A DNA stretch of 64,000 bases from Escherichia coli (GCF_003991155.1 NZ_CP031293.1); one strand, 5' to 3'. Positions 4,611 to 60,029 are shown, counted from the stretch's first letter. Numbers and translations are program-made. The notes: generated by a model not told the origin, from the sequence alone.

Positions 4611-4630
4611 TACTGTATATTCATTCAGGT
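4611..4630. promoter_or_regulatory. LexA (SOS) box in the ssb-uvrA divergent control region
   Basis: tactgtatattcattcaggt, a CTGT-N8-CAG match to the LexA consensus. Confidence 0.85.
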
Positions 4631-43391: not shown

Positions 43392-44741
43392 ATGTCTGAA
43401 ATTGTTGTCTCCAAATTTGGCGGTACCAGCGTAGCTGATTTTGACGCCATGAACCGCAGCGCTGATATTGTGCTTTCTGATGCCAACGTGCGTTTAGTTG
43501 TCCTCTCGGCTTCTGCTGGTATCACTAATCTGCTGGTCGCTTTAGCTGAAGGACTGGAACCTGGCGAGCGATTCGAAAAACTCGACGCAATCCGCAATAT
43601 CCAGTTTGCCATTCTGGAACGTCTGCGTTACCCGAACGTTATCCGTGAAGAGATTGAACGTCTGCTGGAGAACATTACTGTTCTGGCAGAAGCGGCGGCG
43701 CTGGCAACGTCTCCGGCGCTGACAGATGAACTGGTCAGCCACGGCGAGCTGATGTCGACCCTGCTGTTTGTCGAAATCCTGCGCGAACGCGATGTTCAGG
43801 CACAGTGGTTTGATGTACGTAAAGTGATGCGTACCAACGACCGATTTGGTCGTGCAGAGCCAGATGTAGCCGCGCTGGCGGAACTGGCCGCGCTGCAGCT
43901 GCTCCCACGCCTCAATGAAGGCTTAGTGATCACCCAGGGATTTATCGGTAGCGAAAATAAAGGTCGGACAACGACGCTTGGCCGTGGAGGCAGCGATTAT
44001 ACGGCAGCCTTGCTGGCGGAGGCTTTACACGCATCTCGTGTTGATATCTGGACCGACGTCCCGGGCATCTACACCACCGATCCACGCGTGGTTTCCGCAG
44101 CAAAACGCATTGATGAAATCGCGTTTGCCGAAGCGGCAGAGATGGCAACTTTTGGTGCAAAAGTACTGCATCCGGCAACGTTGCTACCCGCAGTACGCAG
44201 CGATATCCCGGTCTTTGTCGGCTCCAGCAAAGACCCACGCGCAGGTGGTACGCTGGTGTGCAATAAAACTGAAAATCCGCCGCTGTTTCGCGCGCTGGCG
44301 CTTCGTCGCAATCAGACTCTGCTCACTTTGCACAGCCTGAATATGCTGCATTCTCGCGGTTTCCTCGCGGAAGTTTTCGGCATCCTCGCGCGGCATAATA
44401 TTTCGGTAGACTTAATCACCACGTCAGAAGTGAGCGTGGCATTAACCCTTGATACCACCGGTTCAACCTCCACTGGCGATACCTTGCTGACGCAATCTCT
44501 GCTGATGGAGCTGTCTGCACTATGCCGGGTAGAAGTGGAGGAAGGTCTGGCGCTGGTCGCGTTGATTGGCAATGACCTGTCAAAAGCCTGCGGCGTAGGC
44601 AAAGAGGTATTCGGCGTACTGGAACCGTTCAACATTCGCATGATTTGTTACGGCGCATCCAGCCATAACCTGTGCTTCCTGGTGCCCGGCGAAGATGCCG
44701 AGCAGGTGGTGCAGAAGCTGCATTTTAATTTGTTTGAGTAA
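43392..44741 (+). CDS. lysC: Lysine-sensitive aspartokinase III (LysC)
   Basis: 449 aa; N-terminal kinase motif VVSKFGGTSVAD; C-terminal ACT domains. Confidence 0.97.
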   Translation: MSEIVVSKFGGTSVADFDAMNRSADIVLSDANVRLVVLSASAGITNLLVALAEGLEPGERFEKLDAIRNIQFAILERLRYPNVIREEIERLLENITVLAEAAALATSPALTDELVSHGELMSTLLFVEILRERDVQAQWFDVRKVMRTNDRFGRAEPDVAALAELAALQLLPRLNEGLVITQGFIGSENKGRTTTLGRGGSDYTAALLAEALHASRVDIWTDVPGIYTTDPRVVSAAKRIDEIAFAEAAEMATFGAKVLHPATLLPAVRSDIPVFVGSSKDPRAGGTLVCNKTENPPLFRALALRRNQTLLTLHSLNMLHSRGFLAEVFGILARHNISVDLITTSEVSVALTLDTTGSTSTGDTLLTQSLLMELSALCRVEVEEGLALVALIGNDLSKACGVGKEVFGVLEPFNIRMICYGASSHNLCFLVPGEDAEQVVQKLHFNLFE

Positions 44742-44753
44742 ACGATCAGTAGA

Positions 44754-44781
44754 GGTGAATAGCGACCCACGACGCTATTCA
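44754..44781. terminator. lysC terminator hairpin
   Basis: gtgaatagcg / cgctattcac perfect 10-bp inverted repeat with an 8-nt loop. Confidence 0.7.
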
Positions 44782-44795
44782 CCATGCCGGTTCAA

Positions 44796-45143
44796 TTACG
44801 AATTACTGCGGCGCTGTTGCTTTTCCGCATGTACGCGTTTCACAATCTTATAAATCCATTGCAGCGTCAGATTATATTTCTTCGCTAATTCGGCGTAGTT
44901 GCGCCCATCGCACTCGCTATAGATTTGGTAGTCACGCTCCGATGCTCGTCCGGAGATCCCCTTAGGGAAATAAATGCTTTGTCCGCCCCAGTTACGCATC
45001 ATTCGGTCGGCAATGGCAAAGCCCACATTTTCTGCCGATGAACTGTCGAGATTGATGCTTTCAATCAGAACTTGCGATGCATGAAAAGCCAGGTCGTTAA
45101 TGATCTCCGGTGTCCGGGCCATCTCTTTTGATTTTCGTATCAT
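44796..45143 (-). CDS. Mor/C-like transcriptional activator (Mu middle/late activator family)
   Basis: 115 aa with C-terminal HTH (ELAKKYNLTLQWIYKIVKR), resembling the Mor/C family; transcribed divergently from the lysis/tail genes. Confidence 0.7.
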   Translation of the reverse strand: MIRKSKEMARTPEIINDLAFHASQVLIESINLDSSSAENVGFAIADRMMRNWGGQSIYFPKGISGRASERDYQIYSECDGRNYAELAKKYNLTLQWIYKIVKRVHAEKQQRRSNS

Positions 45144-45364
45144 TTTTCATCTCCATATATCTTGCATCCTGAATAAGACCCGATGCGTGTAAAACCACGG
45201 ATATACGCTAAGCAGTTGTCATTACTGCTACTCAATACATTCAACAAACAAATAAACAATTAACAAAAATATAAATTTTTAATATTAATGAACGCCATAA
45301 ATTCATGAAATAGATATATTGTTTGCGTTATGTTTCTTGTCAACAGGTGTATCATTTTACACGA

Positions 45365-45384
45365 TACTGTATACACATACAGTA
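45365..45384. promoter_or_regulatory. LexA-box-like palindrome in the island control region
   Basis: tactgtatacacatacagta, a perfect CTGT-N8-ACAG with TA-rich spacer; flanked by the inverted repeat ttttacac / gtgtaaaa. Confidence 0.6.
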
Positions 45385-45680
45385 TTATTTTTACTTGTAG
45401 TGTAAAAAGATCGTTTCCCTCACAGTCGCTGACTTTCTTAAACAAACTTTAAAAATCAAATAACTACTGACTATTCCTACGATTCACCATCATCTTTTCC
45501 CTGCATAATGACGCGCTTATTCGCGAGGTCACCTTTTGCTCTTTAATTGCTGAGTGGATTTATTAGCGGGCATGTTCATTTATAGAGAATCTATTTTTTA
45601 AACTTATTTATTAAAGCTTTTTTCATTCTTCACTGGCGGGTTCTGGCGACACTAAACGCTCACTTATCAGGAGATACCGT

Positions 45681-45968
45681 ATGAAAAAAGTCACTCTTCC
45701 CCGGCTTTCCGGTTGGCTGGTCGCTTCCGTCGCGCTGTTTGTCGTGATCGGCTGGACCTCTTCAGCACAAATCCCGGTCGTCATTTATAAACTAAGCCTG
45801 GTTTCGCTTTCCGCGGTGCTGGGATACTGGCTCGATCGCAGTTTGTTCCCCTGGGCACGGCCTGACTCTTTTTGCCCCTGGAAGGAACCGCGTTGCTGCG
45901 CGGCGGCAATGATTCGCCGGGCTATCATCGTTGCTGCCGTCTGCCTTTCCGTCGCGTTAGGGCTATAG
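45681..45968 (+). CDS. Small membrane protein, putative holin
   Basis: 95 aa with 2-3 predicted TM segments; AGGAGA RBS; first gene of the lysis cassette. Confidence 0.5.
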   Translation: MKKVTLPRLSGWLVASVALFVVIGWTSSAQIPVVIYKLSLVSLSAVLGYWLDRSLFPWARPDSFCPWKEPRCCAAAMIRRAIIVAAVCLSVALGL

Positions 45969-45970
45969 TG

Positions 45971-46576
45971 ATGTGGCTGAAATATATCGCGTCTATGATT
46001 ATTTTCGTTCTTTTCCCACTCAACGCCTCTGAACCGCCGAGAGCCTCTCTGGCATGGCGAAACGAACTAATTCGTACAGCTCGAGAAGTCTGGGGGCTGA
46101 ATGCCCCAGTGGCCGACTTTGCCGGGCAATTACACCAGGAGTCCGCCTGGCAGCCAATGGTACGTTCCCCCGTTGGCGCACAAGGTATGGCGCAATTTAT
46201 GCCTGCTACAGCGACATGGATAAGCCAGTTGTATCCACAATTGCGTGAAAACAAACCGTATAACCCAACCTGGGCGATTCGCGCGCTGGTGCAATATGAC
46301 CAGCATTTGTGGAAAAACATCTCTGCGAAAAATGATTGTCAGCGTATGGCGTTTACCCTAAGCGCCTATAACGGCGGTCAGGGGTGGGTTAACCGGGATA
46401 AAAAACTGGCTGCATCCAAAGGGTTAGATGCCACTAGCTGGTTTGGTCATGTTGAGCAAGTCAACGCCGGGCGCAGCGCCACGAACTGGCGAGAAAATCG
46501 TCGCTATCCAAAGATGATCCTCTATCAACATGCCGCCCGCTATTTACTCTGGGGACAGGCAAGCTGTCTTCATTAA
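45971..46576 (+). CDS. Lytic transglycosylase-type endolysin with N-terminal signal/SAR segment
   Basis: ATG at 45971; hydrophobic N-terminus MWLKYIASMIIFVLFPLNA; SLT-domain catalytic region (LHQESAWQP, AYNGG). Confidence 0.75.
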   Translation: MWLKYIASMIIFVLFPLNASEPPRASLAWRNELIRTAREVWGLNAPVADFAGQLHQESAWQPMVRSPVGAQGMAQFMPATATWISQLYPQLRENKPYNPTWAIRALVQYDQHLWKNISAKNDCQRMAFTLSAYNGGQGWVNRDKKLAASKGLDATSWFGHVEQVNAGRSATNWRENRRYPKMILYQHAARYLLWGQASCLH

Positions 46577-46588
46577 TCAGAGGGGCCG

Positions 46589-46903
46589 ATGAAACTCAGT
46601 ATCGATTTTTGGGAAGTGATCTCCCTTATGCTTTCCTTCGTTGGATTAATGTTTGCTGCCGGAAAACTGCTGTTAGCACAAATTGAAAAACGACTTAATG
46701 AGCGTTTTGAATCTCTGGAAAACGCGCGCCGGGAATCAGAAACAAGTTGGTCGAAACTGGAAAGAGAATTTCTCGAATTTCGTGCCGAGCTTCCGCTGCA
46801 TTATGTCCGCAGAGAAGATTATCTTCGTGGGCAAGCAGTATTAGAAGCGAAGCTGGATGCCTTATATAGCAAAATCGAGCTGTTACAACGTGGCAGTTAT
46901 TGA
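46589..46903 (+). CDS. Spanin-like protein (N-terminal TM plus coiled coil)
   Basis: 104 aa; TM helix then charged coiled-coil region; follows the endolysin. Confidence 0.5.
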   Translation: MKLSIDFWEVISLMLSFVGLMFAAGKLLLAQIEKRLNERFESLENARRESETSWSKLEREFLEFRAELPLHYVRREDYLRGQAVLEAKLDALYSKIELLQRGSY

Positions 46904-47047: not shown

Positions 47048-47503
47048 ATGGAAATTTTATCTGTAATGAATTCTGTTGTGACCAGATTACGTGAACACAA
47101 CTCCGAAATGGATATATTTATTTCATCTAAGGATGCCCAGAAATATATTCCACAGACACAACGAGTTGCAGTGATTATTAATTATAGCGGTTCTGTCTTT
47201 GCTACGCCCGAAAGCAGTAATGCCATCGTGCAACAGCAAATACTCCGCTTAACCGCCACCGTTATTGTTGGCAAAAATTGTGATGCATTAAACGCACTTG
47301 ATCACATACGCAGCGCATTGGGTGGCCTTCAGCTTCCTGATTGCGATCGTCTTCTTTGGCTTGAAAAAGAAATTAATACGGGTGAGAGCGGCGGTTTCTG
47401 CCGCTACATCCTGGAAATGGCGACCAGCTCGCTATTTATCGCTGAACAGGAAAGCACGGATCTTCCCCTGCTTACGGAAGTTAACTACGAGGAAACTGAA
47501 TGA
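47048..47503 (+). CDS. Tail completion/terminator-like protein (Mu gp37-like)
   Basis: 151 aa immediately upstream of the sheath and tube genes; family call made by sequence recall. Confidence 0.5.
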   Translation: MEILSVMNSVVTRLREHNSEMDIFISSKDAQKYIPQTQRVAVIINYSGSVFATPESSNAIVQQQILRLTATVIVGKNCDALNALDHIRSALGGLQLPDCDRLLWLEKEINTGESGGFCRYILEMATSSLFIAEQESTDLPLLTEVNYEETE

Positions 47504-47697
47504 AATACATCTACAACGGCCCAGCAAGCGGCGTCACCCTTGCCGATGGACAAGAAATCTTATTGTGGCCGAACAGTGAAATTGATCTGCCAGAAGACAA
47601 CGAGTGGGTCATGACCATGATTGCCCGCAATCATCTGACTCCTGTCATCACTCAGGAAGAACAAAATAACGTAGAGGAAATTGTACATGGCAGCTAA
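47500..47697 (+). CDS. Small tail-module protein (Mu gp38-like)
   Basis: 65 aa; ATGA start-stop overlap with the upstream gene. Confidence 0.45.
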   Translation: MKYIYNGPASGVTLADGQEILLWPNSEIDLPEDNEWVMTMIARNHLTPVITQEEQNNVEEIVHGS

Positions 47698-49111
47698 TTA
47701 TCTGCACGGTGTAGAAACTATTGAAATTGAAACCGGCCCGCGTCCGGTTAAAGCGGTAAAATCCGCCGTCATCGCTTTAATCGGTACAGCCCCCTGCGGT
47801 CCGGTAAATAAACCAACATTATGCCTTTCTGAAAGCGATGCTGCGCAGTTTGGCTCGACTCAGGCTAACTTTACGATCCCACAGGCACTGAAGGCAATTT
47901 ATGACCACGGTGCCGGTACGGTGGTGGTGATTAACGTGCTGGATCCGGCAAAACATGGCTCCAACATCAGCAATGAGAGTATCACTTTTGATGCTAACAA
48001 CCAGGCGAAGCTCGCTCACCGCAATGTGCGTAACGTGGTACTAAAGCCCTCTTCATCAAATTCATCAACCTTTAACACCGCAGCATTTAGCGTAGATGAA
48101 CAAACAGGCATAATTACCCGTAAAGGAGCCGACATTCCTCCTGGTGCGAAAGTTTGTGCCTATTATTCCTGGTGCGACCCTACAAAGGTCACCGCAGCCG
48201 ATATTATCGGTACCGTAAATACCGCAGGCGACCGCACGGGGATGAAACTGCTACAGGACACCTATAACCTGTATGGTTTCTACGCCAAAATCCTGCTTGC
48301 TCCCGTGTTCTGTACGCAAAAATCAGTAACTACAGAGCTGATTGCACAAGCGGAAAAACTTGGTGCGATTACCTACATTGATGCCCCGATTGGGACGACA
48401 TTCCAGCAGGTATTGGCAGGACGCGGTTCGCAAGGGGCTATCAACTTCAACACCAGCTCTGATCGTGCGCGTTTATGTTACCCACACGTCAAAGTTTACG
48501 ATGGCATCACTAACCAGGAAGTTCTCGAACCGCTCTCTTCGCGCGCTGCCGGGCTACGTGCCAAAGTAGACCTCGAAAAAGGTTTCTGGTGGAGCAACTC
48601 AAACCAAGAAATTCAGGGTATTACCGGTATTGAACGTTCGCTTTCCGCAATGATTGATGATCCACAAAGCGAAGTGAATCAGCTAAACGAAAACGGCATT
48701 ACCACTATTTTCAATAGTTACGGCTCTGGTCTGCGCTTGTGGGGCAACCGCACTGCAGCGTGGCCTACCGTGACCCATATGCGTAACTTTGAAAACGTCC
48801 GCCGGACAGGCGATGTAATTAATGAGTCAATCCGTTATTTCAGTCAGCAGTATATTGATATGCCGATTAATCAGGCGCTGATTGATGCCCTGACCGAATC
48901 GGTAAATACCTGGGGCCGTAAGCTGATTGCCGACGGCGCACTGCTTGGCTTTGAATGCTGGTACGATCCGGCGCGAAATTCACCGACTGAACTCAGCGCT
49001 GGGCATTTATTGCTGAGCTATAAATTCACCCCACCGCCGCCGCTGGAACGTCTGACGTTTGAAACTGAAATTACTTCTGAATATTTAGTCTCTCTGGAGA
49101 GCAATAGCTAA
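47687..49111 (+). CDS. Contractile tail sheath protein
   Basis: About 474 aa from the ATG at 47687 (track start 47681 is TTG); GAGGAAA RBS; followed by the tube gene. Confidence 0.85.
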   Translation: MAANYLHGVETIEIETGPRPVKAVKSAVIALIGTAPCGPVNKPTLCLSESDAAQFGSTQANFTIPQALKAIYDHGAGTVVVINVLDPAKHGSNISNESITFDANNQAKLAHRNVRNVVLKPSSSNSSTFNTAAFSVDEQTGIITRKGADIPPGAKVCAYYSWCDPTKVTAADIIGTVNTAGDRTGMKLLQDTYNLYGFYAKILLAPVFCTQKSVTTELIAQAEKLGAITYIDAPIGTTFQQVLAGRGSQGAINFNTSSDRARLCYPHVKVYDGITNQEVLEPLSSRAAGLRAKVDLEKGFWWSNSNQEIQGITGIERSLSAMIDDPQSEVNQLNENGITTIFNSYGSGLRLWGNRTAAWPTVTHMRNFENVRRTGDVINESIRYFSQQYIDMPINQALIDALTESVNTWGRKLIADGALLGFECWYDPARNSPTELSAGHLLLSYKFTPPPPLERLTFETEITSEYLVSLESNS

Positions 49112-49635
49112 TGGCTGGAAAAATTCAAATTAACCGTATTACCAACGCCAATATTTATCTCGATGGTAATAACCTTTTAGGTCGTGCAACCGAAATTAAA
49201 TTGCCGGATGTCAGTTTAATTATGCAGGAGCATAAAGCACTGGGCATGGTGGGTAAAATCGAACTCCCGGCGGGTTTCGATAAACTGGAGGGCGAAATTA
49301 AATGGAACTCCTTCTATCAGGACGTAATGCGTAAAACGGCAAACCCGTGGCAGGCGGTTGCATTACAGTGCCGCTCCAGTATTGATTGCTATAACTCCCA
49401 GGGGAAAGCGAATCAATTAGCGCTAGTGACACATTTAACCGTGATGTTTAAAAAGAATCCACTGGGCACATTTAAACAGAATGAAAACCCGGAATTCAGC
49501 AGCGCCTTTGGTTGCACTTATATTAAACAAGTAGTTGATGGTGAAACGCTGCTTGAACTTGATTATATGGCCAATATTTTCCGGGTTAATGGTGTGGATC
49601 AATTAAGTACCTATCGCAATAACATCGGTGGCTAA
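49111..49635 (+). CDS. Tail tube protein (P2 FII-like)
   Basis: 174 aa; ATG overlaps the sheath stop; resembles P2 FII-type tube proteins. Confidence 0.8.
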   Translation: MAGKIQINRITNANIYLDGNNLLGRATEIKLPDVSLIMQEHKALGMVGKIELPAGFDKLEGEIKWNSFYQDVMRKTANPWQAVALQCRSSIDCYNSQGKANQLALVTHLTVMFKKNPLGTFKQNENPEFSSAFGCTYIKQVVDGETLLELDYMANIFRVNGVDQLSTYRNNIGG

Positions 49636-49639
49636 GTTA

Positions 49640-49660
49640 TTCGGGGCTACGGCCCCGAAC
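49640..49660 (+). other. Intra-operon hairpin after the tube gene (possible attenuator)
   Basis: ttcggggc / gccccgaa stem with no following T-run. Confidence 0.4.
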
Positions 49661-49685
49661 TTTGCAAAATAAATAAGGACACAAA

Positions 49686-50003
49686 ATGAAAGAACATTAT
49701 ATCTTACAGTTCCCGTTTACTTCAGCGGCGGGAGACGTAATTAACACTCTGCAATTACGTCGCCTGAAAGTAAAAGATATGCGCAACGCGCGCCGGATCA
49801 GCGAAAAACCTGAAGAGTGGGATGAACCGCTAATGGCGGCAATGACCGGACTGGTGCCAGAAGATTTAGCTGAAATGGATTTGCTGGATTACCAGGCATT
49901 GCAGAAACGATTTCAATCCATGCTTAGCGTGGCTACAGAATCCGCCACTGTTATGGCAAGCGATGGCGTTACTGGCGAGATGGTTTCGCTTTCCACCCAG
50001 TGA
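49686..50003 (+). CDS. Tail assembly chaperone (gpE/gp41-like)
   Basis: 105-aa acidic protein directly upstream of the tape measure gene. Confidence 0.65.
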   Translation: MKEHYILQFPFTSAAGDVINTLQLRRLKVKDMRNARRISEKPEEWDEPLMAAMTGLVPEDLAEMDLLDYQALQKRFQSMLSVATESATVMASDGVTGEMVSLSTQ

Positions 50004-50192
50004 GATAGACGCCCTTACCGTCGATGACTTTAGCAACTGGCTGGATGAAGCCAGCGCCCAAATAAAAATCGAATATGACTCGCAGACCTGATGTCTGCGA
50101 GTTTCCCAAGCCCGTCAGGTTTATTTCTTCCCTGCCCCTTTTTTTAGAAAAATAACCAGCGGGCCATTATCAATATTTAAAGAGAAACAATT

Positions 50193-52568
50193 TTGGCCAA
50201 CGATATTATTACCCAGCTTCAGGCGCGTAATGAGACGTTGACGCAGGCAATAGCCCGTTACGGCTCACTCAACGCCAGAACATTGTTAACTCTCTCTACT
50301 CAGCAGGCGACAGTTATCAAACTAACGCAGCAGCTTGCCGATTCCGCTCTCCGCCTGGAGGAAAATAGCCGCAGCCGCGCTAATCTGATGGAGAAAACCC
50401 AAACATTTGCCGGGCAATTTAGCAAAGTATTCAATGTTGAAGCCCCCGACTGGAAGTTGCCGTATGAGTTTCAGGACAACATGGTCAATATGGCGACCAA
50501 AGGTGGGATGAATGCTACAACCCGCGAGACGCTCAGCCTTAATCTGCGCGACTGGAGCATGGATTTTAACCAGCAGCAGACCACCTTACAGAACGCAGCC
50601 CAAACGCTGATCGAAGGCAATTTGTCGTCGATACAGGATCTCAACCGTTATATGCCGGAGATCGCCAAAGCTGCCACCGCCACGCGCGAAAGTGCTGAAA
50701 CATGGGCGAATGCCGCGCTCGCAACCCATGATCGACTGAATATTGCCCCGGAAAATTTCCACGCCGCGCAAAACATGATGTACGGCATTAGCAAAAGCGG
50801 TGGGCCTGCCATTGCTGAACAAACGCAGTGGATAGAGAAATTTGCAGGTAAAACCGGCGCTCAGGGTCTGGAAGGTATGGCTGAACTGACCGCCACCATG
50901 CAGATCGCCATGAAAAACGGGGCCAGCGCCAGTGCGGCGGCGGAGAATTTCGACCACTTTCTGCAAACCACCTTTTCGAAAAAAACCGATTACTGGTTCG
51001 TCAGCCAGGGCGTTGATCTGCAAGGCTCTCTGCTTGAGCATCAGCAAAACGGTATGGGTGTTAGCGAAGCCATGACTCATATCGTGCAAATGCAGCTTGA
51101 GAAGATGAATCCGGCGATCCTCGACACCTTCAAACGCACCATGCAGATCGAAGATTTATCTGCCCGCAGCAATGCGCTGCAATCGATGGTGACGCAGTTT
51201 AATCTGGGGGAAATGTTCGGCGATGCGCAAACAGTGGAATTCCTGGCCCCTATGCTGGCGAATATGGAGGAATATCGCCAGTTAAAAGCCTCTGCCATGC
51301 AAGCCACCAGCAAGAATCTGATTGATGCCGACTTTTCTGCGCAAATGGCCTCGCCCATTGAACAGACTAAAGCGTTACAGCTGGCGTTAAATGATTTATG
51401 GCTCAGCATTGGCTTGCAATTAATGCCGCTGATTGGCGAGCTGGCACAAAGCCTTACGCCGGTTATTCGTCAGTTCAGCGCCTGGCTACGTGAGCACCCG
51501 ACACTGGTGCAAAACATCGCGAAAATCGTCGGGGCGATTTGGCTGTTTAACGGTGCGCTGAATGTTTTAAAGCTGGGCGCGAACCTCATCACCTCGCCGT
51601 TTATTCGTCTGGTCGATATCTTCCTGAAAGTCAAGGCAAGTCTGGCGCTCACAGGCGGGGCAAGTAAGATGCTATCAGCGGTTAAGTCATTGGGTGGCGG
51701 CGCAAAATGGCTAACGCAACTGCTTGGTCGTGGCCTGATTGGAACATTGAAACTGGTTGGTCGGACCGTTCTCTCACTAGGCCGGGTGCTACTGATGAAT
51801 CCCATTGGTCTGGTCATCACTGCGATTGCGGGCGCTGCTTATCTGATTTATCGCAACTGGGAGCCTATCTCCAGGTTCTTTTCGACCATCTGGCAACGTA
51901 TCACCACGGCCTTTGACGGCGGCATTGCAGGAATTTGTCGGTTGATTCTCGACTGGTCACCGCTGGAGTTGTTCTATAGCGCCTTTTCCAGTGTGATGAA
52001 TTGGTTTGGTGTCGAGATGCCTGCAAGTTTTAGCGAGTTCGGCAGCAATCTTCTGGGCAGTCTGGTTGACGGCATAATGAATGCCTTCCCCGCTCTGAAA
52101 GGCATTATTGATCAGGTAAAAAACGCCATCCCAGACTGGCTAAAAACCACGATGGGTATTAGTACAGAAGGATCGGCTACAGCTATTACAAGCACGACTA
52201 ATACCGCATCCGTCTCCCCCGCGACCGTTGTTCCAGGCGTTGCCGGTGCGATTTTAACGCCGCCGGTGGGCAAACAACTCGCGCCATCCGGCAAAACGGC
52301 TACGCCGTCATCGGCGCCAGCGGCAAAAAATACAGCCGCCAAACCCGTATCTGCCTCTTTACCTGGTAAATCCGTAACCAAAGCGGCGACGCTACCTTCC
52401 CGTTCCTCAGGAAAAGTTCAGGTGAATTTTTCGCCACAAATTACCGTGCAGGGTAACGGACAAAACACCACTAAAGAGATTCAGAACGTGTTGACGATGA
52501 GTAAACGCGAACTGGAAAGAATGATTAACGATGTAATGGCGCAGCAGCAGCGCCGGGGGTATGCCTAA
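50193..52568 (+). CDS. Tail tape measure protein
   Basis: 791 aa, largely alpha-helical, hydrophobic central segments, Ala/Pro/Ser/Thr-rich C-terminal region; track start is TTG. Confidence 0.85.
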   Translation: MANDIITQLQARNETLTQAIARYGSLNARTLLTLSTQQATVIKLTQQLADSALRLEENSRSRANLMEKTQTFAGQFSKVFNVEAPDWKLPYEFQDNMVNMATKGGMNATTRETLSLNLRDWSMDFNQQQTTLQNAAQTLIEGNLSSIQDLNRYMPEIAKAATATRESAETWANAALATHDRLNIAPENFHAAQNMMYGISKSGGPAIAEQTQWIEKFAGKTGAQGLEGMAELTATMQIAMKNGASASAAAENFDHFLQTTFSKKTDYWFVSQGVDLQGSLLEHQQNGMGVSEAMTHIVQMQLEKMNPAILDTFKRTMQIEDLSARSNALQSMVTQFNLGEMFGDAQTVEFLAPMLANMEEYRQLKASAMQATSKNLIDADFSAQMASPIEQTKALQLALNDLWLSIGLQLMPLIGELAQSLTPVIRQFSAWLREHPTLVQNIAKIVGAIWLFNGALNVLKLGANLITSPFIRLVDIFLKVKASLALTGGASKMLSAVKSLGGGAKWLTQLLGRGLIGTLKLVGRTVLSLGRVLLMNPIGLVITAIAGAAYLIYRNWEPISRFFSTIWQRITTAFDGGIAGICRLILDWSPLELFYSAFSSVMNWFGVEMPASFSEFGSNLLGSLVDGIMNAFPALKGIIDQVKNAIPDWLKTTMGISTEGSATAITSTTNTASVSPATVVPGVAGAILTPPVGKQLAPSGKTATPSSAPAAKNTAAKPVSASLPGKSVTKAATLPSRSSGKVQVNFSPQITVQGNGQNTTKEIQNVLTMSKRELERMINDVMAQQQRRGYA

Positions 52569-53521
52569 TGTATGCCGTTTTAGGAGAGATTGAATTTAAG
52601 GTTGTCACATTCTGGGACGGCTTTAAAAGCACAATGGGCGTGGATTACGCCACACATGCCCGTATAGAAGGCAAACCCGGCGTGCAGTTTATTGGCGATA
52701 AGCTGGATATGCTGGCGCTGGAATTTTCCCTGCACAGCCAGTTTTGCCAGCCCACAACAGAGCTGAACCGACTGCGTGAAGCCATGCTTGCTCACAAGGC
52801 GATGGCACTGGTATTTGGCAATGGCGATTATCGCGGCTGGTTTGTGATTACGGAGCTAACCGCCACCCACCAGCACACCGATCCCTGGGGCAATGTGATT
52901 GCCCAAAACGGAACGATGTCGCTCCAGGAGTACACCGGCGATCCTAAAAATCCACTTTTACCTCCGGCGATTACCACCCAGGAGCCCAACATCGAGGAAA
53001 AGGCGAGCGATTTTCCCGACAAGGTGGAGTCCTGGTTTGATCAGATATTAAACGCCATTGAAGAAGGTATGCGTAAGGCCAAAGAGATGCTGGATGAACT
53101 GACACAATCCATTGAAGATATTAAAAAAACGGTGGCAAAAGTGAAAGCAATGATTAAAGAGGCCAAAGCGTTAAAAGAAAAGTGTGAAAAGATAATTACG
53201 TCATTGAAAAAGACAATCGACGCCATCGAAACCCTGTTTAAACAGCCAATGGATCTGCAAACGCTGGCAGGCCTACCAAAAGCGTTGTCGGCGCAGATTA
53301 AAGCTTTACTGGGTAACATGCCAGGTATCCGGGACTGCGCCAATGACGCCAGTACGCTGGTTGACCATGCTCAGGCGCTTTTCGACGACATTACCAGCGA
53401 CATCGCCGAAGCGACGTTCGATAAAGCCACGTCGTTGGTTGAGCAGGCACGTACAACGGTACAACAAACCACTCCCGCAGTGAGCCAGCTTGCTGCCGTA
53501 ACCATTACCAGGAGCTGGTAA
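52568..53521 (+). CDS. Tail protein, gpU / DNA-circulation N-terminal-domain-like, with coiled-coil C-terminal extension
   Basis: N-terminal 140 aa resemble P2 gpU / Mu gpN N-domain; C-terminal half is Lys/Glu-rich coiled coil. Confidence 0.6.
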   Translation: MYAVLGEIEFKVVTFWDGFKSTMGVDYATHARIEGKPGVQFIGDKLDMLALEFSLHSQFCQPTTELNRLREAMLAHKAMALVFGNGDYRGWFVITELTATHQHTDPWGNVIAQNGTMSLQEYTGDPKNPLLPPAITTQEPNIEEKASDFPDKVESWFDQILNAIEEGMRKAKEMLDELTQSIEDIKKTVAKVKAMIKEAKALKEKCEKIITSLKKTIDAIETLFKQPMDLQTLAGLPKALSAQIKALLGNMPGIRDCANDASTLVDHAQALFDDITSDIAEATFDKATSLVEQARTTVQQTTPAVSQLAAVTITRSW

Positions 53522-53730
53522 TGCGATACCTTGAACATATCACCACCGATGGCGAACGCTGGGATAACCTGGCATGGCATTACTACGGTGATGCGCTGGC
53601 TTATGAACGCATAATCGCCGCCAATCCACATGTAGCCATTTACCCGGTACTGCCTTCCGGTATTCAGCTCATTATTCCGGTCATTTCCGTTAATAAAACC
53701 TTATCGGAGATCCCACCATGGCTGAGATGA
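53521..53730 (+). CDS. Tail protein X-like (LysM-like)
   Basis: 69 aa with the DxWDxLAxxYYGD...ANP pattern typical of P2 gpX. Confidence 0.65.
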   Translation: MRYLEHITTDGERWDNLAWHYYGDALAYERIIAANPHVAIYPVLPSGIQLIIPVISVNKTLSEIPPWLR

Positions 53731-54758
53731 GCGTAACTGGTGGCGTCTTTGCCACACTCACGCCCATTTTTACCCTCTGGTATGGGCATAAAGATATCAC
53801 TTATGACATCACACCCTATGTCACCAGCATCAGTTACCACGACAGCATCAAAAACGAGTCGGATACCATCGCAATTACACTGGATGACACAGATGGACGC
53901 TGGATAAAAGAGTGGTATCCCGGCAAAGGCGATACGCTGGCGCTGCATATAGGTTATCAGGGGGAAAAGCTGCTCGATTGTGGCCAGTATATTATTGATA
54001 AAATTGATATTTCAGCGCCACCTTCCACGGTAAATATTGATGGCATCGCCACTTCCGTCAATCAGGCGCTGCGCACCCGTAACAGCCAGGGCTTTGAAGA
54101 AACGACGCTTTCGGCGATCGCCAGCCGTATTGCCCAAACGCACGGTCTGAAACTGGTGGGCAAAATCGAGTCGCTCACCATCGACCGGGTAACGCAGTAT
54201 GGTGAAACCGATGTCGGATTTCTCAAACGTCTGGCCAGTGAATATGGTTATGCCGTAAAAGTGACGACAAAAGAGCTGATTTTTTCACATTTACCCACGC
54301 TGCGCTGCCTGACGCCTGTGAAAAAGATCGATCGCAAAGAGGTTTCTCATTTTACCTTCAAAGACACCATTAACCGGATCTACAAGAACGCCACCGTACA
54401 GCATCAAAATAGTAAGAAAAAAGAACTGGTTATCTACACTCACAACAGCCAGCAAAAACCATCTGTCCGTGGAGTCGGCACTAGTGCCGACACGCTAAAA
54501 CTGAACAGTCGGGCGACGGACGTTGGCGCAGCACAGGCAAAGGCTAACGCTGCACTCGACAGCCACAACGAATATCAGCAAACCGGAACGCTCACAATGA
54601 TGGGCTGCCCGGAACTGACGGCGGGCAATAAAATTGAACTGACCGATTTTGGCGTGATTTCCGGTCAGTGGCTGATTGATAAATCTACTCACAGTTTTGT
54701 GCGCAGCGGCTATACCACTGAAATCGACGTGTCACGCGGGCCAGCGACCAGCCAGTAA
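53718..54758 (+). CDS. Tail/baseplate hub protein (P2 gpD / Mu gpP-like)
   Basis: 346 aa following gpU-like and gpX-like genes. Confidence 0.65.
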   Translation: MAEMSVTGGVFATLTPIFTLWYGHKDITYDITPYVTSISYHDSIKNESDTIAITLDDTDGRWIKEWYPGKGDTLALHIGYQGEKLLDCGQYIIDKIDISAPPSTVNIDGIATSVNQALRTRNSQGFEETTLSAIASRIAQTHGLKLVGKIESLTIDRVTQYGETDVGFLKRLASEYGYAVKVTTKELIFSHLPTLRCLTPVKKIDRKEVSHFTFKDTINRIYKNATVQHQNSKKKELVIYTHNSQQKPSVRGVGTSADTLKLNSRATDVGAAQAKANAALDSHNEYQQTGTLTMMGCPELTAGNKIELTDFGVISGQWLIDKSTHSFVRSGYTTEIDVSRGPATSQ

Positions 54759-54767
54759 GGAGGAAAT

Positions 54768-55469
54768 ATGAAAGGAGTAACCCGTCAAACGGGGATTATC
54801 AGCGATATTGACGAAACCAGTGTTCGGGTACGGGTCACTCTACCAGAGTGTGACAATCTGAAGAGCAACTGGCTTGCGGTACTTCAACGCAATTCCCAGG
54901 ACAATAAAGACTACTGGCTACCGGATATGGGCGAGCAAGTGGAAGTTCTGCTGGACGATAACGGTGAAGATGGCGTGGTGCTGGGTGCCGTTTATTCTAC
55001 GGTTGACACCGCGCCTGTAGCCTCGCGCGACAAACGTTACGTCCAGTTTTCTGATGGCGCAGCGTTTGAATATGACCGCAGCACGCACCAGCTGACGATT
55101 AACGGCGGTATCGAGAAAATCGTGATTGAGGTTATCGACAGCACCCGCCTGACATCGCCCAACGTTGAGATTAAAGCCCAACACGTCACCGTGACTTCCG
55201 ATACCGTCGATGTTAAAGCGACCGATGTCAGCATCGACGCCACTAAGGTCGAGGTTAAAGCAGCAGCAGTGACGGTAGATGCGCCCATGAGCACCTTTAC
55301 TGGCAACGTCACGGTAATGAAAAAACTCACCTGGCTTGGCGGGATGGCAGGAAGTGGAGGCATCGGTAACGCAGCCACGATAACCGGCAATGTCAACGTG
55401 ATCGGCAACGTTCAGGCCAGCGGCGCATTGCAGGACAGCGGTGGCAACTCCAACCACCATTCACACTGA
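54768..55469 (+). CDS. Baseplate central spike protein (gpV-like)
   Basis: 233 aa; beta-rich repeats (VEIKAQHVTVTSDTVDVKATDVSIDATKVEVKAAAVTVDA); C-terminal HHSH. Confidence 0.75.
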   Translation: MKGVTRQTGIISDIDETSVRVRVTLPECDNLKSNWLAVLQRNSQDNKDYWLPDMGEQVEVLLDDNGEDGVVLGAVYSTVDTAPVASRDKRYVQFSDGAAFEYDRSTHQLTINGGIEKIVIEVIDSTRLTSPNVEIKAQHVTVTSDTVDVKATDVSIDATKVEVKAAAVTVDAPMSTFTGNVTVMKKLTWLGGMAGSGGIGNAATITGNVNVIGNVQASGALQDSGGNSNHHSH

Positions 55470-55567
55470 CTTTTAACCCGCCTGATGGCGGGTTTTCTCT
55501 TTTTAATCAATCAGTTTTCTAAATCGCTTTAATATCTCCACAGCCCGTTCAGGGCGAAAATACCCTC

Positions 55568-55927
55568 ATGAACACAAAAACACGCCCCTCAACGCTGCAC
55601 TGGCAACCGGCCTTGCAGCGGCCTGAAGAATACGTCTGCGGGCTGGATGATATTCACCAGGCAATACACATCATTCTGCGTACACCGCGCGGCAGTGATC
55701 CCCACAGACCGCTGTTTGGCAGCAACTTGTGGCACTACATCGATTACCCCATCGAGCGGGCTATCCCGCATGTGGTACGGGAGTCGGTGGAAGCCATCCG
55801 CCAGTGGGAACCGCGCTGTCGGTTGCTGAAGGTGACACCAGTAATCGACGGCGAACATCTGACGTTACGTGTGCAATGGCGCGCCGCTGACGGCGTTATC
55901 AACTCAACGGAGGTGTTATGGCGATAG
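55568..55927 (+). CDS. Baseplate wedge protein (GPW/gp25 lysozyme-like family)
   Basis: 119 aa with family-typical GxDxxxAIHIIL...GSxPxRPxFGS pattern. Confidence 0.75.
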   Translation: MNTKTRPSTLHWQPALQRPEEYVCGLDDIHQAIHIILRTPRGSDPHRPLFGSNLWHYIDYPIERAIPHVVRESVEAIRQWEPRCRLLKVTPVIDGEHLTLRVQWRAADGVINSTEVLWR

Positions 55928-57033
55928 CCGAACCCAATTTTATTGACCGCGATCCTGCGCAAATTACCAGTGAGATGATTGCGCAATACGAAGATGCCAG
56001 TGGTAAAAAACTCTATCCGGCACAGGCTGAGCGGTTGCTCATCGACCTGTTTGCCTATCGTGAAAACCTTGTACGCATCGCCATTCAGGAAGCGGCGAAA
56101 CAAAACCTGGTCGCGTATTCCCGCGCGCCAATGCTGGATTATTTAGGGGAGTTGGTGGGAGTTCACCGTTTGCCTGCGCAGCCTGCAAAAACGACGTTGC
56201 AGTTTTCGGTCGTTAGTGCGTATCCCGGCAATATCCTGATTCCCCAGGGGACGCGGGCCAGTGCCTCTGATAGCGTGATGTTCGCCACCGATGAAGATGT
56301 TCTGCTTCCGGCCAGGAGTTTGCATATCGCCGTTCCTGCCACCAGCCTCGCAGCAGGTGAACAGGGTAACGGCTGGCAGCCTGCACAAATTAGCGCACTG
56401 GTCGACAGGATTGGTCATTATGACATCAACGTAACCAACCTGACTGCGTCAACGGGCGGCTGCGGTGAAGAGAGCGATGACGCATTGCGCCAGCGTATCC
56501 AACTGGCACCAGAAAGCTTTAGTAATGCGGGCAGCTATGGTGCCTACCGCTTTCATACGCTTTCTGTTAGCCAGTCGATTATTGACGTTGCAGTACTGGG
56601 GCCGGACGAGGGATTGCCAGAAGGCTGCGTGGAGATCTACCCGCTAACCCTGAATGGTCTACCCGGCACGGAGTTGCTGGCGCAGATTGAACAAGAAGTC
56701 AGCAAGGAGAAAAAACGACCGCTGACCGACAAAGTGAGTGCGAAATGCGCTCTTCGAGTGCCGTATGAGATCCGTGCGCAGCTAATGCTGTTTACCACCG
56801 CCGATCAGGAGACAACGCTGGCTGCGGCGCGTAAAGCGATTAGCCTCTGGACGCAACAGCGGCAGAAACATCTGGGGCAGGACATTGTGCCAAACCAGAT
56901 AATCAAAGTGTTACAGGTCGATGGCGTCTATGACGTTGCGCTGAATATGCCTACAAAACGTATTTTGCAGGCGCATGAATGGGCGGAATGCACTGCAATA
57001 GACGTCACGATTGCCGGAGTCAGCGATGGATAA
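55918..57033 (+). CDS. Baseplate J-like protein
   Basis: 371 aa; start overlaps the gpW-like stop. Confidence 0.75.
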   Translation: MAIAEPNFIDRDPAQITSEMIAQYEDASGKKLYPAQAERLLIDLFAYRENLVRIAIQEAAKQNLVAYSRAPMLDYLGELVGVHRLPAQPAKTTLQFSVVSAYPGNILIPQGTRASASDSVMFATDEDVLLPARSLHIAVPATSLAAGEQGNGWQPAQISALVDRIGHYDINVTNLTASTGGCGEESDDALRQRIQLAPESFSNAGSYGAYRFHTLSVSQSIIDVAVLGPDEGLPEGCVEIYPLTLNGLPGTELLAQIEQEVSKEKKRPLTDKVSAKCALRVPYEIRAQLMLFTTADQETTLAAARKAISLWTQQRQKHLGQDIVPNQIIKVLQVDGVYDVALNMPTKRILQAHEWAECTAIDVTIAGVSDG

Positions 57034-57742
57034 ATTGCTGCCACCGCCGCCGCTTGCCAGCGATGAGCGTTTTTCGATTCTGGCAAACATCGCCGCCGAG
57101 CGTTTTGCCCAACTCGATCTGACGGCGTTGATGGTTTATCTGGTCGACCTGGTTGATGCTTCGGCATTACCAGCCCTTGCAGAACAATTTCACGTTCAGG
57201 GGCTGGAAGGTTGGTTATTTACCACCGATGAGCGGGAGAAACGCGAGTTAATTAAACAAGCCATTGAACTGCATAAATATAAAGGAACAATTTGGGCGGT
57301 ACGGCGAGTGCTGGAAATACTTTCCTTACCCGGAACTATTTCAGAATGGTTTGAATATGGGGGAAGGGCTTATTTTTTTAAGGTAAATATTACACTAGAG
57401 GAAAAAGGATTAAATGAAGATGAATTCAATGCACTTATCACATTAATTCATGAATATAAAAATGTTCGTTCAAAGCTGGAAAGCATTGTTATTTGGCTTA
57501 TTAATCGAAGCCCAATACCAGTTATTGGCAGCGCCATGCAAGGAGGGGAAGTCATTACAGTATTGCCTCCTGTTGCAGAAAGCCTCAGCCAGTCATCAGG
57601 AATATTTTTAGCGACGGGTTATTGTGTGGAGGAATATATCCAACTACTACCTTATCAACCCGATCGCCTTACACAATCCCAACCGATGAAGGTCGGCACA
57701 GGATACTGGAGCACCGAAATTATGTCTGTATATCCGGAGTAA
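57026..57742 (+). CDS. Tail protein I-like (baseplate wedge)
   Basis: ATG at 57026 overlapping the J stop (track start 57011 is TTG); about 238 aa. Confidence 0.65.
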
Positions 57743-57744
57743 TA

Positions 57745-59325
57745 ATGGCAAGTGAATTTTTTACAATATTAACTGCTGCAGGCAAAGCCAAAATTGCCTC
57801 AGCACTGGCCGAGCAAAAACAGATCCGTCTGCAAACTATGGTAGTTGGCGACGGTAATGGTAAATATATCGAACCGACAGAAAGTCAGACCAAAGTAGTC
57901 CATGAGGTCTGGCGTGGTCAGCTCAATACATTAAAAATTGCGCCAGATAATCCGGCCTGGGTTATCGCAGAAGCGATTATTCCCGAACAAGTCGGAGGCT
58001 GGTATGTACGCGAAGTTGGGTTACTGGATACCGACGGCACGCTGGTCGCTATTGGTAAATTCCCGGAAACCTATAAGCCACGATTACCTGCGGGGGCCAG
58101 TAAGCAAATCGTTATACGCGCGGTCATGGAAGTCACCAATGCAGACGCGGTGACGCTTTTGATCGACCCTTCAGTCGTTGTGGCAACCAGGGAATATGTC
58201 GATGACGCGTTGAAAACACATCAGCAATCACGAAATCATCCTGATGCGACGCTGACACAAAAAGGTTTTACGCAGCTCAGTAATGCAACTAATAGCGATG
58301 ATGAGACTAAAGCAGCCACGCCAAAAGCGGTAAAAACGGCATATGACCTGGCAAATAGCAAAGCCGCAACCAGTCATACTCATGCCTGGAATCAGATTAC
58401 TGGTATCCCTGACGGTACACTGACGCAGAAAGGAGTCGTTAAACTTAACAACACAACAAATAGCACCAGTACAACGGAAGCTGCAACGCCAAGTGCGGTT
58501 AAAGCAGCGATGGACAAGGCTATTGCTGCGGCGCCGTCCAGCCATACCCATGCCTGGGGGCAAATAACAGGTATCCCCGACGGTACGCTGACACAAAAAG
58601 GGGTCGTGAAACTTAATAATGCGACCAACAGCACCAGTACGACGGAAGCTGCGACGCCGAACGCGGTTAAGGCAGCGATGGATAAGGCTATTGCTGCGGA
58701 AAGCTGTCCTGTTGGGATGCCTATTCCCTGGCCATCTGATTCTGTACCTTCAGGCTACGCTCTGATGACAGGTCAGACATTTAATAAAACCTCCTATCCC
58801 AAACTGGCAATTGCATATCCATCTGGTGTTATTCCTGATATGCGCGGATGGATAATTAAAGGAAAACCATCCAGTGGGCGCGCTATATTATCTACTGAAC
58901 TGGATGGAGTTAAATCACATAACCATACGGGCAGTATTTCGAGTACTGATTTAGGGACGAAAACCACACCCCTCACAGACTTGGGGACTAAAACTGCATC
59001 ATCATTTAACCATGGAAATAAAACAACAAGTTCATCTGGCTCAGGCTCGGCAACTGCAACAGTAAGAACAGGGACATCTTCACCAGAGGGCCAAGGCGAC
59101 TGGACATCATATGGCCCTGGTACCGGATCATCTTTGGCAATTAATGTTCCATCACACGTTCATAGTGTTACAATTGGTTCCCATTCGCACACTGTTGCGC
59201 TCGGCACCCATTCGCATTCAATTGCACTTGGTTCCCATAACCACTCCCTAACCATTAATAATACCGGCAGCACCGAAAACACCGTCAAAAATATCGCATT
59301 CAACTATATTGTGAGGCTAGCATGA
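57745..59325 (+). CDS. Tail fiber protein with tandem fiber repeats and His-rich C-terminal tip
   Basis: ATG at 57745 in frame with the track ORF; three tandem 56-aa repeats; C-terminal HxH motifs (SHSHT, THSHS, SHNHS) and [11 protein letters not shown] end. Confidence 0.85.
58246..58700 (+). repeat. Tandem 168-bp direct repeats inside the tail fiber gene
   Basis: Repeat units begin at about 58246, 58414 and 58582; units 2 and 3 are near-identical at the DNA level. Confidence 0.8.
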
Positions 59326-60029
59326 ATACTTTTACCTTTTCTGATGAAGCTCAAATACTAACTGTATATAATTTTTCACAAGACTCCCAAGAATATATCG
59401 GTGAGTCTGATGCATACATTGCACCTAATACAGGCTTGCCAAATTATTGCACATTAATTTCACCTCCCGAAAAGGCTCCTGGTTTTACTCCAGTGTGGGA
59501 GAATGAAACATGGAGACTTATTGAAGATCATCGAGGCCAAACTGTTTATAACAAAGTTGATGGTAGCCAGCTTATTATTCAAGAATTGGGCCAATTACCT
59601 GAAAATGTAACAGTCATTTCCCCGACAGGTTCTTTTGAACGTTGGGATGGTGAAAAATGGCAACCATCTATAACCGATGCTAAAGAGGCGAAATACTCTG
59701 CAATCAAAAATCAACGCGATGCCATCACAACCGATTACATCATCATCAACAACCATCACTTCCACAGTGATACAAATAGCCGTATCCAACAGCTTTCACT
59801 CACAAAAATGGGAGCGGAGAAAAAAATTCCGCCAGGGTTAATGTGGAAAACTAAAAATAATGGTCTGATTGAGTTAACCAACGAAATCGCTGCCCAGTTT
59901 GAATCGGTCACCATGGATCACGATATGCGCTTGTTCGCAAACGCCCAGCGTCATATCGCGGCGGTGGAAGCACTGGACGATATTCAGGCGGTGCTCGACT
60001 ACGATTATTCAACAGGCTGGCAACCATGA
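59322..60029 (+). CDS. Tail fiber assembly protein (chaperone)
   Basis: 235 aa; ATGA overlap with the fiber stop. Confidence 0.7.

Follow-up and report, generated by a model that had tools for sequence, protein, structure and literature searches.

The 20-bp palindrome tactgtatacacatacagta, located at 45365-45384 as the preliminary description had placed it, is very probably a genuine LexA operator, a prediction made from its sequence. It stands between a gene for a Mor-family activator and a lysis cassette in an island next to lysC, and DNA damage probably switches this island on. The window (the whole 64,000-nt stretch of DNA that was analysed) is Escherichia coli chromosome, with uvrA, lexA, mal, pgi and lysC in order, followed by the island.

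Sequence and score of the predicted operator

The site and the inverted repeat near it are placed as follows:

45365..45384, no strand assigned: LexA operator TACTGTATACACATACAGTA, from consensus, weight matrix and half-sites in orthologs
45400..45411, no strand assigned: right arm of an inverted repeat, E. coli-specific; left arm at 45351-62

The operator consists of CTGT (45367-70), the spacer ATACACAT (45371-78) and ACAG (45379-82), and the palindrome arms of the box (9 nt, 45364-72 and 45377-85) are 100% complementary. It had been described as a perfect CTGT-N8-ACAG palindrome with a TA-rich spacer, close to consensus, and this is borne out by the exact core and by a match to the 20-mer LexA consensus at 18 of 20 positions, with both mismatches in the central spacer and 0 such matches expected by chance. 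Perfect CTGT-N8-ACAG occurs twice in the 64-kb window, the second copy being the lexA box at 21538. As 10 of 100 shuffled windows reach two copies, the CTGT-N8-ACAG count alone is weak evidence. When the window was scanned with the 20-mer consensus and as many as three mismatches were tolerated, the box at 45365-45384 was the sole match, and 100 shuffles gave none.

For scoring we used a symmetrised LexA weight matrix of 28 E. coli operators. Scored in this way, as the preliminary description had proposed, the box ranks first in the window with 25.5 bits. It was said to match as well as the bona fide uvrA and lexA boxes, and in fact exceeds them (25.5 versus 19-20 bits): the control boxes score 20.2 (uvrA/ssb, 4611-4630), 20.1 (lexA, 21536) and 19.3 bits (lexA, 21515), although all three belong to the training set of the matrix. 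The best position left in the window after these four boxes reaches 12.2 bits. Compared with the training set, the box outscores 25 of the 28 operators and falls within the range of experimentally verified ones; its heterology index is 2.87, and just 3 of the 28 training operators have a lower index and so lie closer to consensus. LexA would be expected to bind at 45365-45384 with high affinity. Recovery of the uvrA/ssb box (4611-4630) and of the lexA boxes (21515-21555) where expected provides internal positive controls for the scan.

The setting of the box is an AT-rich intergenic region between the Mor/C-like gene and the lysis cassette, as described: the mor-holin spacer (45144-45680, 537 bp) has 33.5% G+C, compared with 49.8% for the window. 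The box was also said to be bracketed by an inverted repeat. A repeat of 12 nt and 92% complementarity does exist (45351-62 and 45400-11), but it is not centred on the box, and its right arm lacks conservation: another E. coli haplotype has a mismatched version, and other genera have none. Conservation of the repeat is confined to the left arm (45351-62), and the flanking repeat is probably irrelevant.

The island and conservation of its control region

The genes flanking the operator are the following:

44796..45143, minus strand: Mor-family transcription activator gene, RdgB homolog, 115 aa, from PHROG 532, RefSeq and homology
45681..46903, plus strand: lysis cassette, with holin (45681-45968), SLT lytic transglycosylase (45971-46576) and membrane/spanin-like protein (46589-46903)
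47048..60481, plus strand: BcepMu/P2-type contractile tail module, from RefSeq annotation, sheath similarity and open ORFs

The Mor-family gene adjoins lysC and is read leftward. Its product matches PHROG 532 ('late transcriptional activator', E = 1e-35) and is 50% identical to the Mor-like (RdgB-like) protein of Pectobacterium carotovorum (E = 1e-40), and all of its close homologs carry Pfam PF08765. The island brings its own lysis cassette (holin, SLT transglycosylase and membrane protein). The tail module encodes a gp37-family protein, sheath, tube, chaperone, a 791-aa tape measure, gpU/X/D-like proteins, baseplate V/W/J/I, fibre and DUF4376 proteins, with two small genes after the fibre gene, and ends at ~60481. 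The contractile-tail set of sheath, tube, tape measure, baseplate and fibre is complete, and the sheath shares 71% identity with BcepMu gp39 and 74% with the sheath of enterobacterial BcepMu-like phages. All tail and lysis ORFs are open in the window, including that of the tape measure. No genes for capsid/head, terminase/packaging, replication, transposase or integrase are annotated by RefSeq between lysC and yjbD, and no repressor gene is annotated within the island. The suggestion that SOS control would be typical of a bacteriocin-like function agrees with this combination of a complete, headless contractile-tail cluster and a lysis cassette. From the gene content, we infer that the island is a tailocin-like, headless element of BcepMu type, which would be expected to produce particles.

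In strain 2016C-3878, which is 100% identical, RefSeq flags the tape-measure gene (50193-52568) as a pseudogene with an 'internal stop'. We rejected the stop, as the 791-aa ORF is uninterrupted and its TTG start is the annotated start in Salmonella; the pseudogene call appears to be an artefact of annotation. Two genes that converge on the tail operon, for a nucleotidyltransferase-domain and a slipin-family protein (60496-62420, minus strand), separate the tail module from yjbD. They may be island cargo; the PADLOC defence-system models gave no match to these two right-end genes.

The island is present in 199 of 5426 complete E. coli genomes (3.7%), always on the chromosome. It is orthologous to Salmonella STM4196-STM4219 ('Def4'), which occupies the same lysC junction, and further orthologous islands adjoin lysC in Phytobacter, Superficieibacter and metagenome contigs. 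IMG/VR contigs with both the operator and the conserved decamer beside it (see below) are all about 10-17 kb long (13 of 13), the size of the headless island, and are thus taken to be headless.

We compared mor-holin spacers from three E. coli haplotypes, seven tail-bearing Salmonella loci, Phytobacter massiliensis, two Superficieibacter, Enterobacter hormaechei and four metagenome contigs. Between genera the spacer is mostly unalignable (56-60% column identity), with sharp conserved islands. One of these is composed of the decamer CATTTTACAC, two variable bases and then the LexA box. Eleven of 13 orthologous spacers, drawn from at least four genera, have invariant half-sites of the box, against a spacer background of ~60%. 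Among six box-bearing lineages the decamer, CTGT and ACAG are each 100% conserved and the 8-bp operator spacer 85%, compared with 58% and 73% for the 30-bp flanks and 60% for the whole region. Box variants differ mainly at positions that LexA tolerates (central ACAC, ACAT, GCAC, ATAT and GCAT; GTTTAT in the metagenome ortholog L077), and those of E. coli and Salmonella differ at degenerate spacer positions only. The dyad is kept in all three E. coli haplotype classes (185 full-length matches), and the LexA box is present in all seven tail-bearing Salmonella loci examined. Box and mor ATG are 222 to 292 bp apart, depending on the ortholog, whereas decamer and box keep a fixed spacing; the box is thus linked to the promoter element beside it, not to the coding sequence. 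No LexA box of at least 13 bits was found near mor at 49 distant Mor-family loci (Pectobacterium, Pseudomonas, Burkholderia, Pasteurellaceae and others). Judged from these comparisons, the LexA box is a specific feature of this lineage of islands.

The spacer has a third island of conservation:

45438..45457, no strand assigned: block C TTAAACAAACTTTAAAAATC, from the alignment of orthologous spacers

Block C shows 84% identity across eight lineages; it is found in box-less orthologs too and is missing from Superficieibacter. We could match 45438-45457 to no promoter, RNA family or known protein site.

Several natural variants of the operator and island were found. In E. coli CREC-544 and isolate 648 (L080, L081), which represent two different spacer haplotypes, ISKox3 (ISL3 family, 1.3 kb) sits exactly between CTGT and ACAG, with the 8-bp operator spacer as target-site duplication (ATACACAT and ATACATAT; window 45371-45378). 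This insertion destroys the operator and parts the -35 from the -10 of both candidate promoters described below. The intergenic match is split at the same point in ~11 of 196 E. coli genomes. Many Salmonella genomes keep mor beside lysC and have a hexapeptide-repeat acetyltransferase gene in place of the holin gene and tail cluster (loci L060, L061, L064, L066, L069 and L072); the breakpoint lies ~155 bp upstream of mor, so that the LexA box and decamer are gone and mor is left as an orphan. In E. hormaechei (L062/L063) and metagenome contig L078, the order mor-holin-SLT is kept and there is no LexA box (best site at most 6 bits), although a decayed remnant, CATTTTATAATAAACACTGCTTATGATTGC, is recognisable in E. 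hormaechei. Thus, LexA control is not obligatory for the element.

Promoters, cascade and competing explanations

A scan for sigma-70-like promoters gave two arrangements that hold their positions in all box-bearing orthologs and overlap completely:

45353..45362, minus strand: predicted mor promoter, conserved decamer CATTTTACAC with -10 TAAAAT at 45359-45354, from conservation and promoter scan
Leftward predicted promoter in full: -35 CTGTAT (45382-77, poor, inside the box), 17-bp spacer, -10 TAAAAT; score 8.4
45356..45383, plus strand: rightward predicted promoter TTTACA-16-TACAGT, -35 at 45356-61 and -10 at 45378-83; score 9.0

The two form a back-to-back pair in which the -10 of each is the -35 of the other, and the box overlaps the predicted -35/-10 elements on both strands. 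The leftward start is predicted at ~45347, which would put the box at about -18 to -37 and give a 204-nt leader to mor; the rightward start, at ~45390, would put the box at about -25 to -6 and give a 291-nt leader to the holin gene. In the metagenome ortholog L077 the rightward -10 becomes TACAGC, with loss of the essential last T, and the leftward elements are intact. E. hormaechei, which has no box, retains TAAAAT at an unchanged distance from mor and has lost both rightward hexamers.

Expression data are available for Salmonella. RNA-seq of S. Typhimurium 14028 shows STM14_5073 up 4.08-fold with nalidixic acid (PMC8072944 Dataset S1). This 348-bp gene at the lysC end of Def4 was taken as the mor ortholog by size and position. 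As 1091 loci rose at least 2-fold in the same experiment (PMC8072944), the induction of Salmonella mor is not specific. The tail and lysis genes (STM14_5042-5072) are all absent from the list of loci induced at least 2-fold by nalidixic acid (PMC8072944 Dataset S1), so the second step of a cascade from mor to the tail genes is unsupported by these data. STM14_5073 is also absent from the 48 SOS loci of the published Salmonella survey (PMC8072944); a small annotated ORF that overlaps the box (Infantis record L002, 3557-3688) is a possible reason for this omission.

The invariant TAAAAT, the TACAGC of L077, the E. hormaechei pattern and the induction of STM14_5073 favour the leftward direction, and on the predicted promoters the wiring with the most support is LexA control of the Mor gene, which we consider reasonably probable. 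The preliminary description had suggested direct SOS control of the element. SOS control is supported by the top-range score, the position on predicted core promoter elements, the invariant half-sites, the Salmonella induction and the gene content; it is probably direct for the activator gene alone and indirect for the tail operon.

Upstream of the holin gene are the parts of a candidate late promoter:

45590..45617, plus strand: block B CTATTTTTTAAACTTATTTATTAAAGC, proposed Mor site of the late promoter, from spacer conservation
45648..45653, plus strand: proposed late-promoter -10 GACACT, nAnAnT in all 13 orthologs; -35 poor

Block B is the most conserved island of the spacer (91% identity over 45596-45615 in eight lineages), and a conserved Shine-Dalgarno sequence, GGAG, lies at 45670-73, 21 nt beyond the late -10. 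Together, block B, the poor -35 and the nAnAnT -10 have the anatomy that would be expected of an activator-dependent late promoter, and Mor may bind to block B. No further copy of block B with up to three mismatches was found in the tail cluster or the rest of the window, and the single copy makes one long operon likely.

We propose that LexA, bound on the leftward core promoter, would block RNA polymerase at mor in undamaged cells, the host LexA box taking the role of the missing element-encoded repressor. DNA damage would lead to RecA-stimulated self-cleavage of LexA, which would free the mor promoter and allow Mor to be made. Mor would in turn activate the promoter with the poor -35 ~30 bp 5' of the holin gene (-10 at 45648-53, block B upstream), and the lysis cassette and the 13-kb contractile-tail operon beside lysC would then be expressed. 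We lean towards this model as a whole, in which LexA represses mor and Mor activates the holin promoter.

LexA could instead repress the rightward promoter (start ~45390) and gate the holin, lysis and tail genes directly, either alone or with mor via the overlapping pair. This promoter is the sole site in a consensus promoter scan, has the slightly higher matrix score (9.0 versus 8.4), keeps its position in 11 orthologs and in most of them is as well conserved as the leftward promoter; the box would cover its spacer and -10, a classic repressor position, and the uvrA/ssb box in the same window is a precedent for one LexA box serving divergent genes. We nevertheless judge this arrangement possible but doubtful, given the loss of the rightward -10 in L077 and of both rightward hexamers in E. 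hormaechei, where the leftward -10 persists. In addition, the rightward leader (45460-45590) is not conserved among orthologs; no conserved small ORF was found 3' of the box on either strand, as indels break the reading frame, and no Rfam or other known RNA family was found in 44700-45800 at E values up to 1. A separate, better conserved promoter lies directly 5' of the holin gene, and the Salmonella list of genes induced at least 2-fold by nalidixic acid includes mor and lacks holin and tail genes. More speculative still, and in our view rather unlikely, is a scenario of a repressor-free, tailocin-like island that predates the Escherichia-Salmonella split, in which one LexA dimer on the overlapping promoter pair would gate both mor and a lysis-tail leader transcript and so tie the island directly to the host SOS regulon, and in which recurrent ISKox3 landings would yield SOS-blind variants.

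Two explanations question the operator or its use. The box may bind LexA within a circuit that is a relic, such that derepression of mor in a decaying prophage remnant would lead to neither particles nor lysis. The Salmonella island is indeed catalogued as the prophage remnant Def4 (PMC5322425) and its tail genes are not induced in the nalidixic-acid data; the box is lost in two lineages and split by ISKox3 in the ~11 of 196 E. coli genomes noted above, many Salmonella genomes have lost the entire tail cluster, and in some strains individual tail genes are marked as pseudogenes by RefSeq. However, the tail and lysis ORFs, tape measure included, are all open in the window, and across genera the conservation of operator, decamer and late-promoter block far exceeds the background of the spacer, an argument for continued selection; we consider decay to a relic unlikely. 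It is very improbable that the palindrome is something other than a LexA site, whether an AT-rich palindrome that arose by chance, a hairpin in RNA or DNA, or a site for another protein. The fold predicted for the region is more stable than those of shuffles (-15.2 kcal/mol, z = -3.4), the box spacer is a preferred ISKox3 target and the bare CTGT-N8-ACAG count is not significant alone, but the match spans all 20 positions with zero expected by chance, conservation tracks the LexA contacts (half-sites fixed, centre free) and not base-pairing, and the predicted fold depends for its outer stem on the right arm of the inverted repeat, which is not conserved. We know of no other enterobacterial regulator with this specificity.

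Related systems and probable place in the SOS regulon

The canonical SOS operators of E. coli (sulA, umuDC, recN, uvrA/ssb) share the 20-bp dyad TACTGT-(AT)4-ACAGTA and the strongest score class with the box described here, which lies on predicted -35/-10 elements and, like that of uvrA/ssb, in a divergent intergenic region. Unlike them, this sequence-predicted box is in an accessory island and is associated with a phage-type activator gene, not with repair.

A close parallel for a single small Mor-family gene coupling DNA damage to lysis or bacteriocin-type genes is RdgA/RdgB of Pectobacterium. The rdgA-rdgB pair regulates the DNA-damage-induced pectin lyase, according to Liu et al. 1994 as cited in PMC3349551. 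In P. carotovorum DSM 30168 (L024, 2729-4330), a gene for a 249-aa cI-like protein (HTH and S24 domains) lies directly 5' of the Mor-like gene. This is the rdgA-rdgB arrangement, and no tail cluster lies within 4 kb of it; thus, the Pectobacterium activator acts at a distance, whereas that of the island adjoins its tail cluster. The Pectobacterium locus has a cI-like repressor gene and no LexA box; the island has no such gene and a host LexA operator. As it lacks an adjacent gene for a cI-like, RecA-cleavable repressor, the island resembles the RdgA/RdgB circuit and is not a member of it. The Pectobacterium literature on RdgA/RdgB also discusses carotovoricin, which has been termed a Mu-type tailocin without an associated repressor gene (preprint 10.64898/2025.12.09.693261).

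The R and F pyocins of Pseudomonas are controlled by PrtR/PrtN, and the Burkholderia tailocin BceTMilo by a cI-like repressor and Ogr (PMC5411513). The logic is the same, in that a damage-sensitive repressor acts on an activator and thereby on the lysis and tail genes of a headless element. The pyocins and BceTMilo, however, carry their own RecA-cleavable repressor and unrelated activators, whereas in the island the host LexA would be the damage sensor. Coliphage 186 tum and colicin genes also carry LexA boxes. The same is true of the Gifsy dinI-antirepressor operons (PMC8072944). As in the island, a mobile element carries a host LexA box on one small gene, regulatory or lethal, such that SOS would trigger it; these genes are antirepressors or toxins, whereas that of the island is a Mor/C-type late activator with no prophage repressor to antagonise. 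With the Mor/C cascade of Mu and with BcepMu-like phages, the island shares a Mor-family activator, an SLT-type lysin, a gp37-family gene and a related sheath. In Mu-type phages mor is part of a repressor-controlled early operon, whereas in the island it stands alone, divergent from the late genes, with a LexA box. In the related phage KP12, neither block B upstream of the holin gene nor a divergent mor is present. SOS-controlled, phage-derived lethal modules are already well known, and the mechanism is not new.

In the Salmonella island, Mor gene, box and holin gene have the same layout, and the box, TACTGTATATATATACAGTT, is better still. The region STM4219-STM4196 is catalogued as the prophage remnant 'Def4' (PMC3591323; PMC5322425), and in the searchable literature it is described solely as a remnant with gtr genes (PMC5322425). 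Its LexA box and SOS induction are absent from the published Salmonella SOS regulon (PMC8072944). In the searchable literature, which leaves most subscription journals outside, we found nothing that describes LexA control of this island or presents its E. coli version as a tailocin, and no report of particles or killing by it. Identity with the 'ST131 tailocin' (PMC9205054) was rejected, as that is a P2-like prophage elsewhere in the genome, and so was identity with the LexA-controlled ExPEC endolysins Epel1/2 (PMC9621596), which are at other loci with dissimilar proposed boxes.

Def4 and its unnamed E. coli ortholog would gain a concrete, testable function and trigger. The natural variants, with box decayed, box split by an insertion sequence, or tail cluster deleted and mor kept, are ready-made controls. 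The published Salmonella SOS survey omitted the mor ortholog even though its own data show induction. The SOS regulon would gain an accessory, potentially lethal module in ~4% of E. coli strains and in a large proportion of Salmonella. If the island does yield particles, exposure of carrier strains to fluoroquinolones or other inducers of the SOS response would lead to lysis and release of tailocins.
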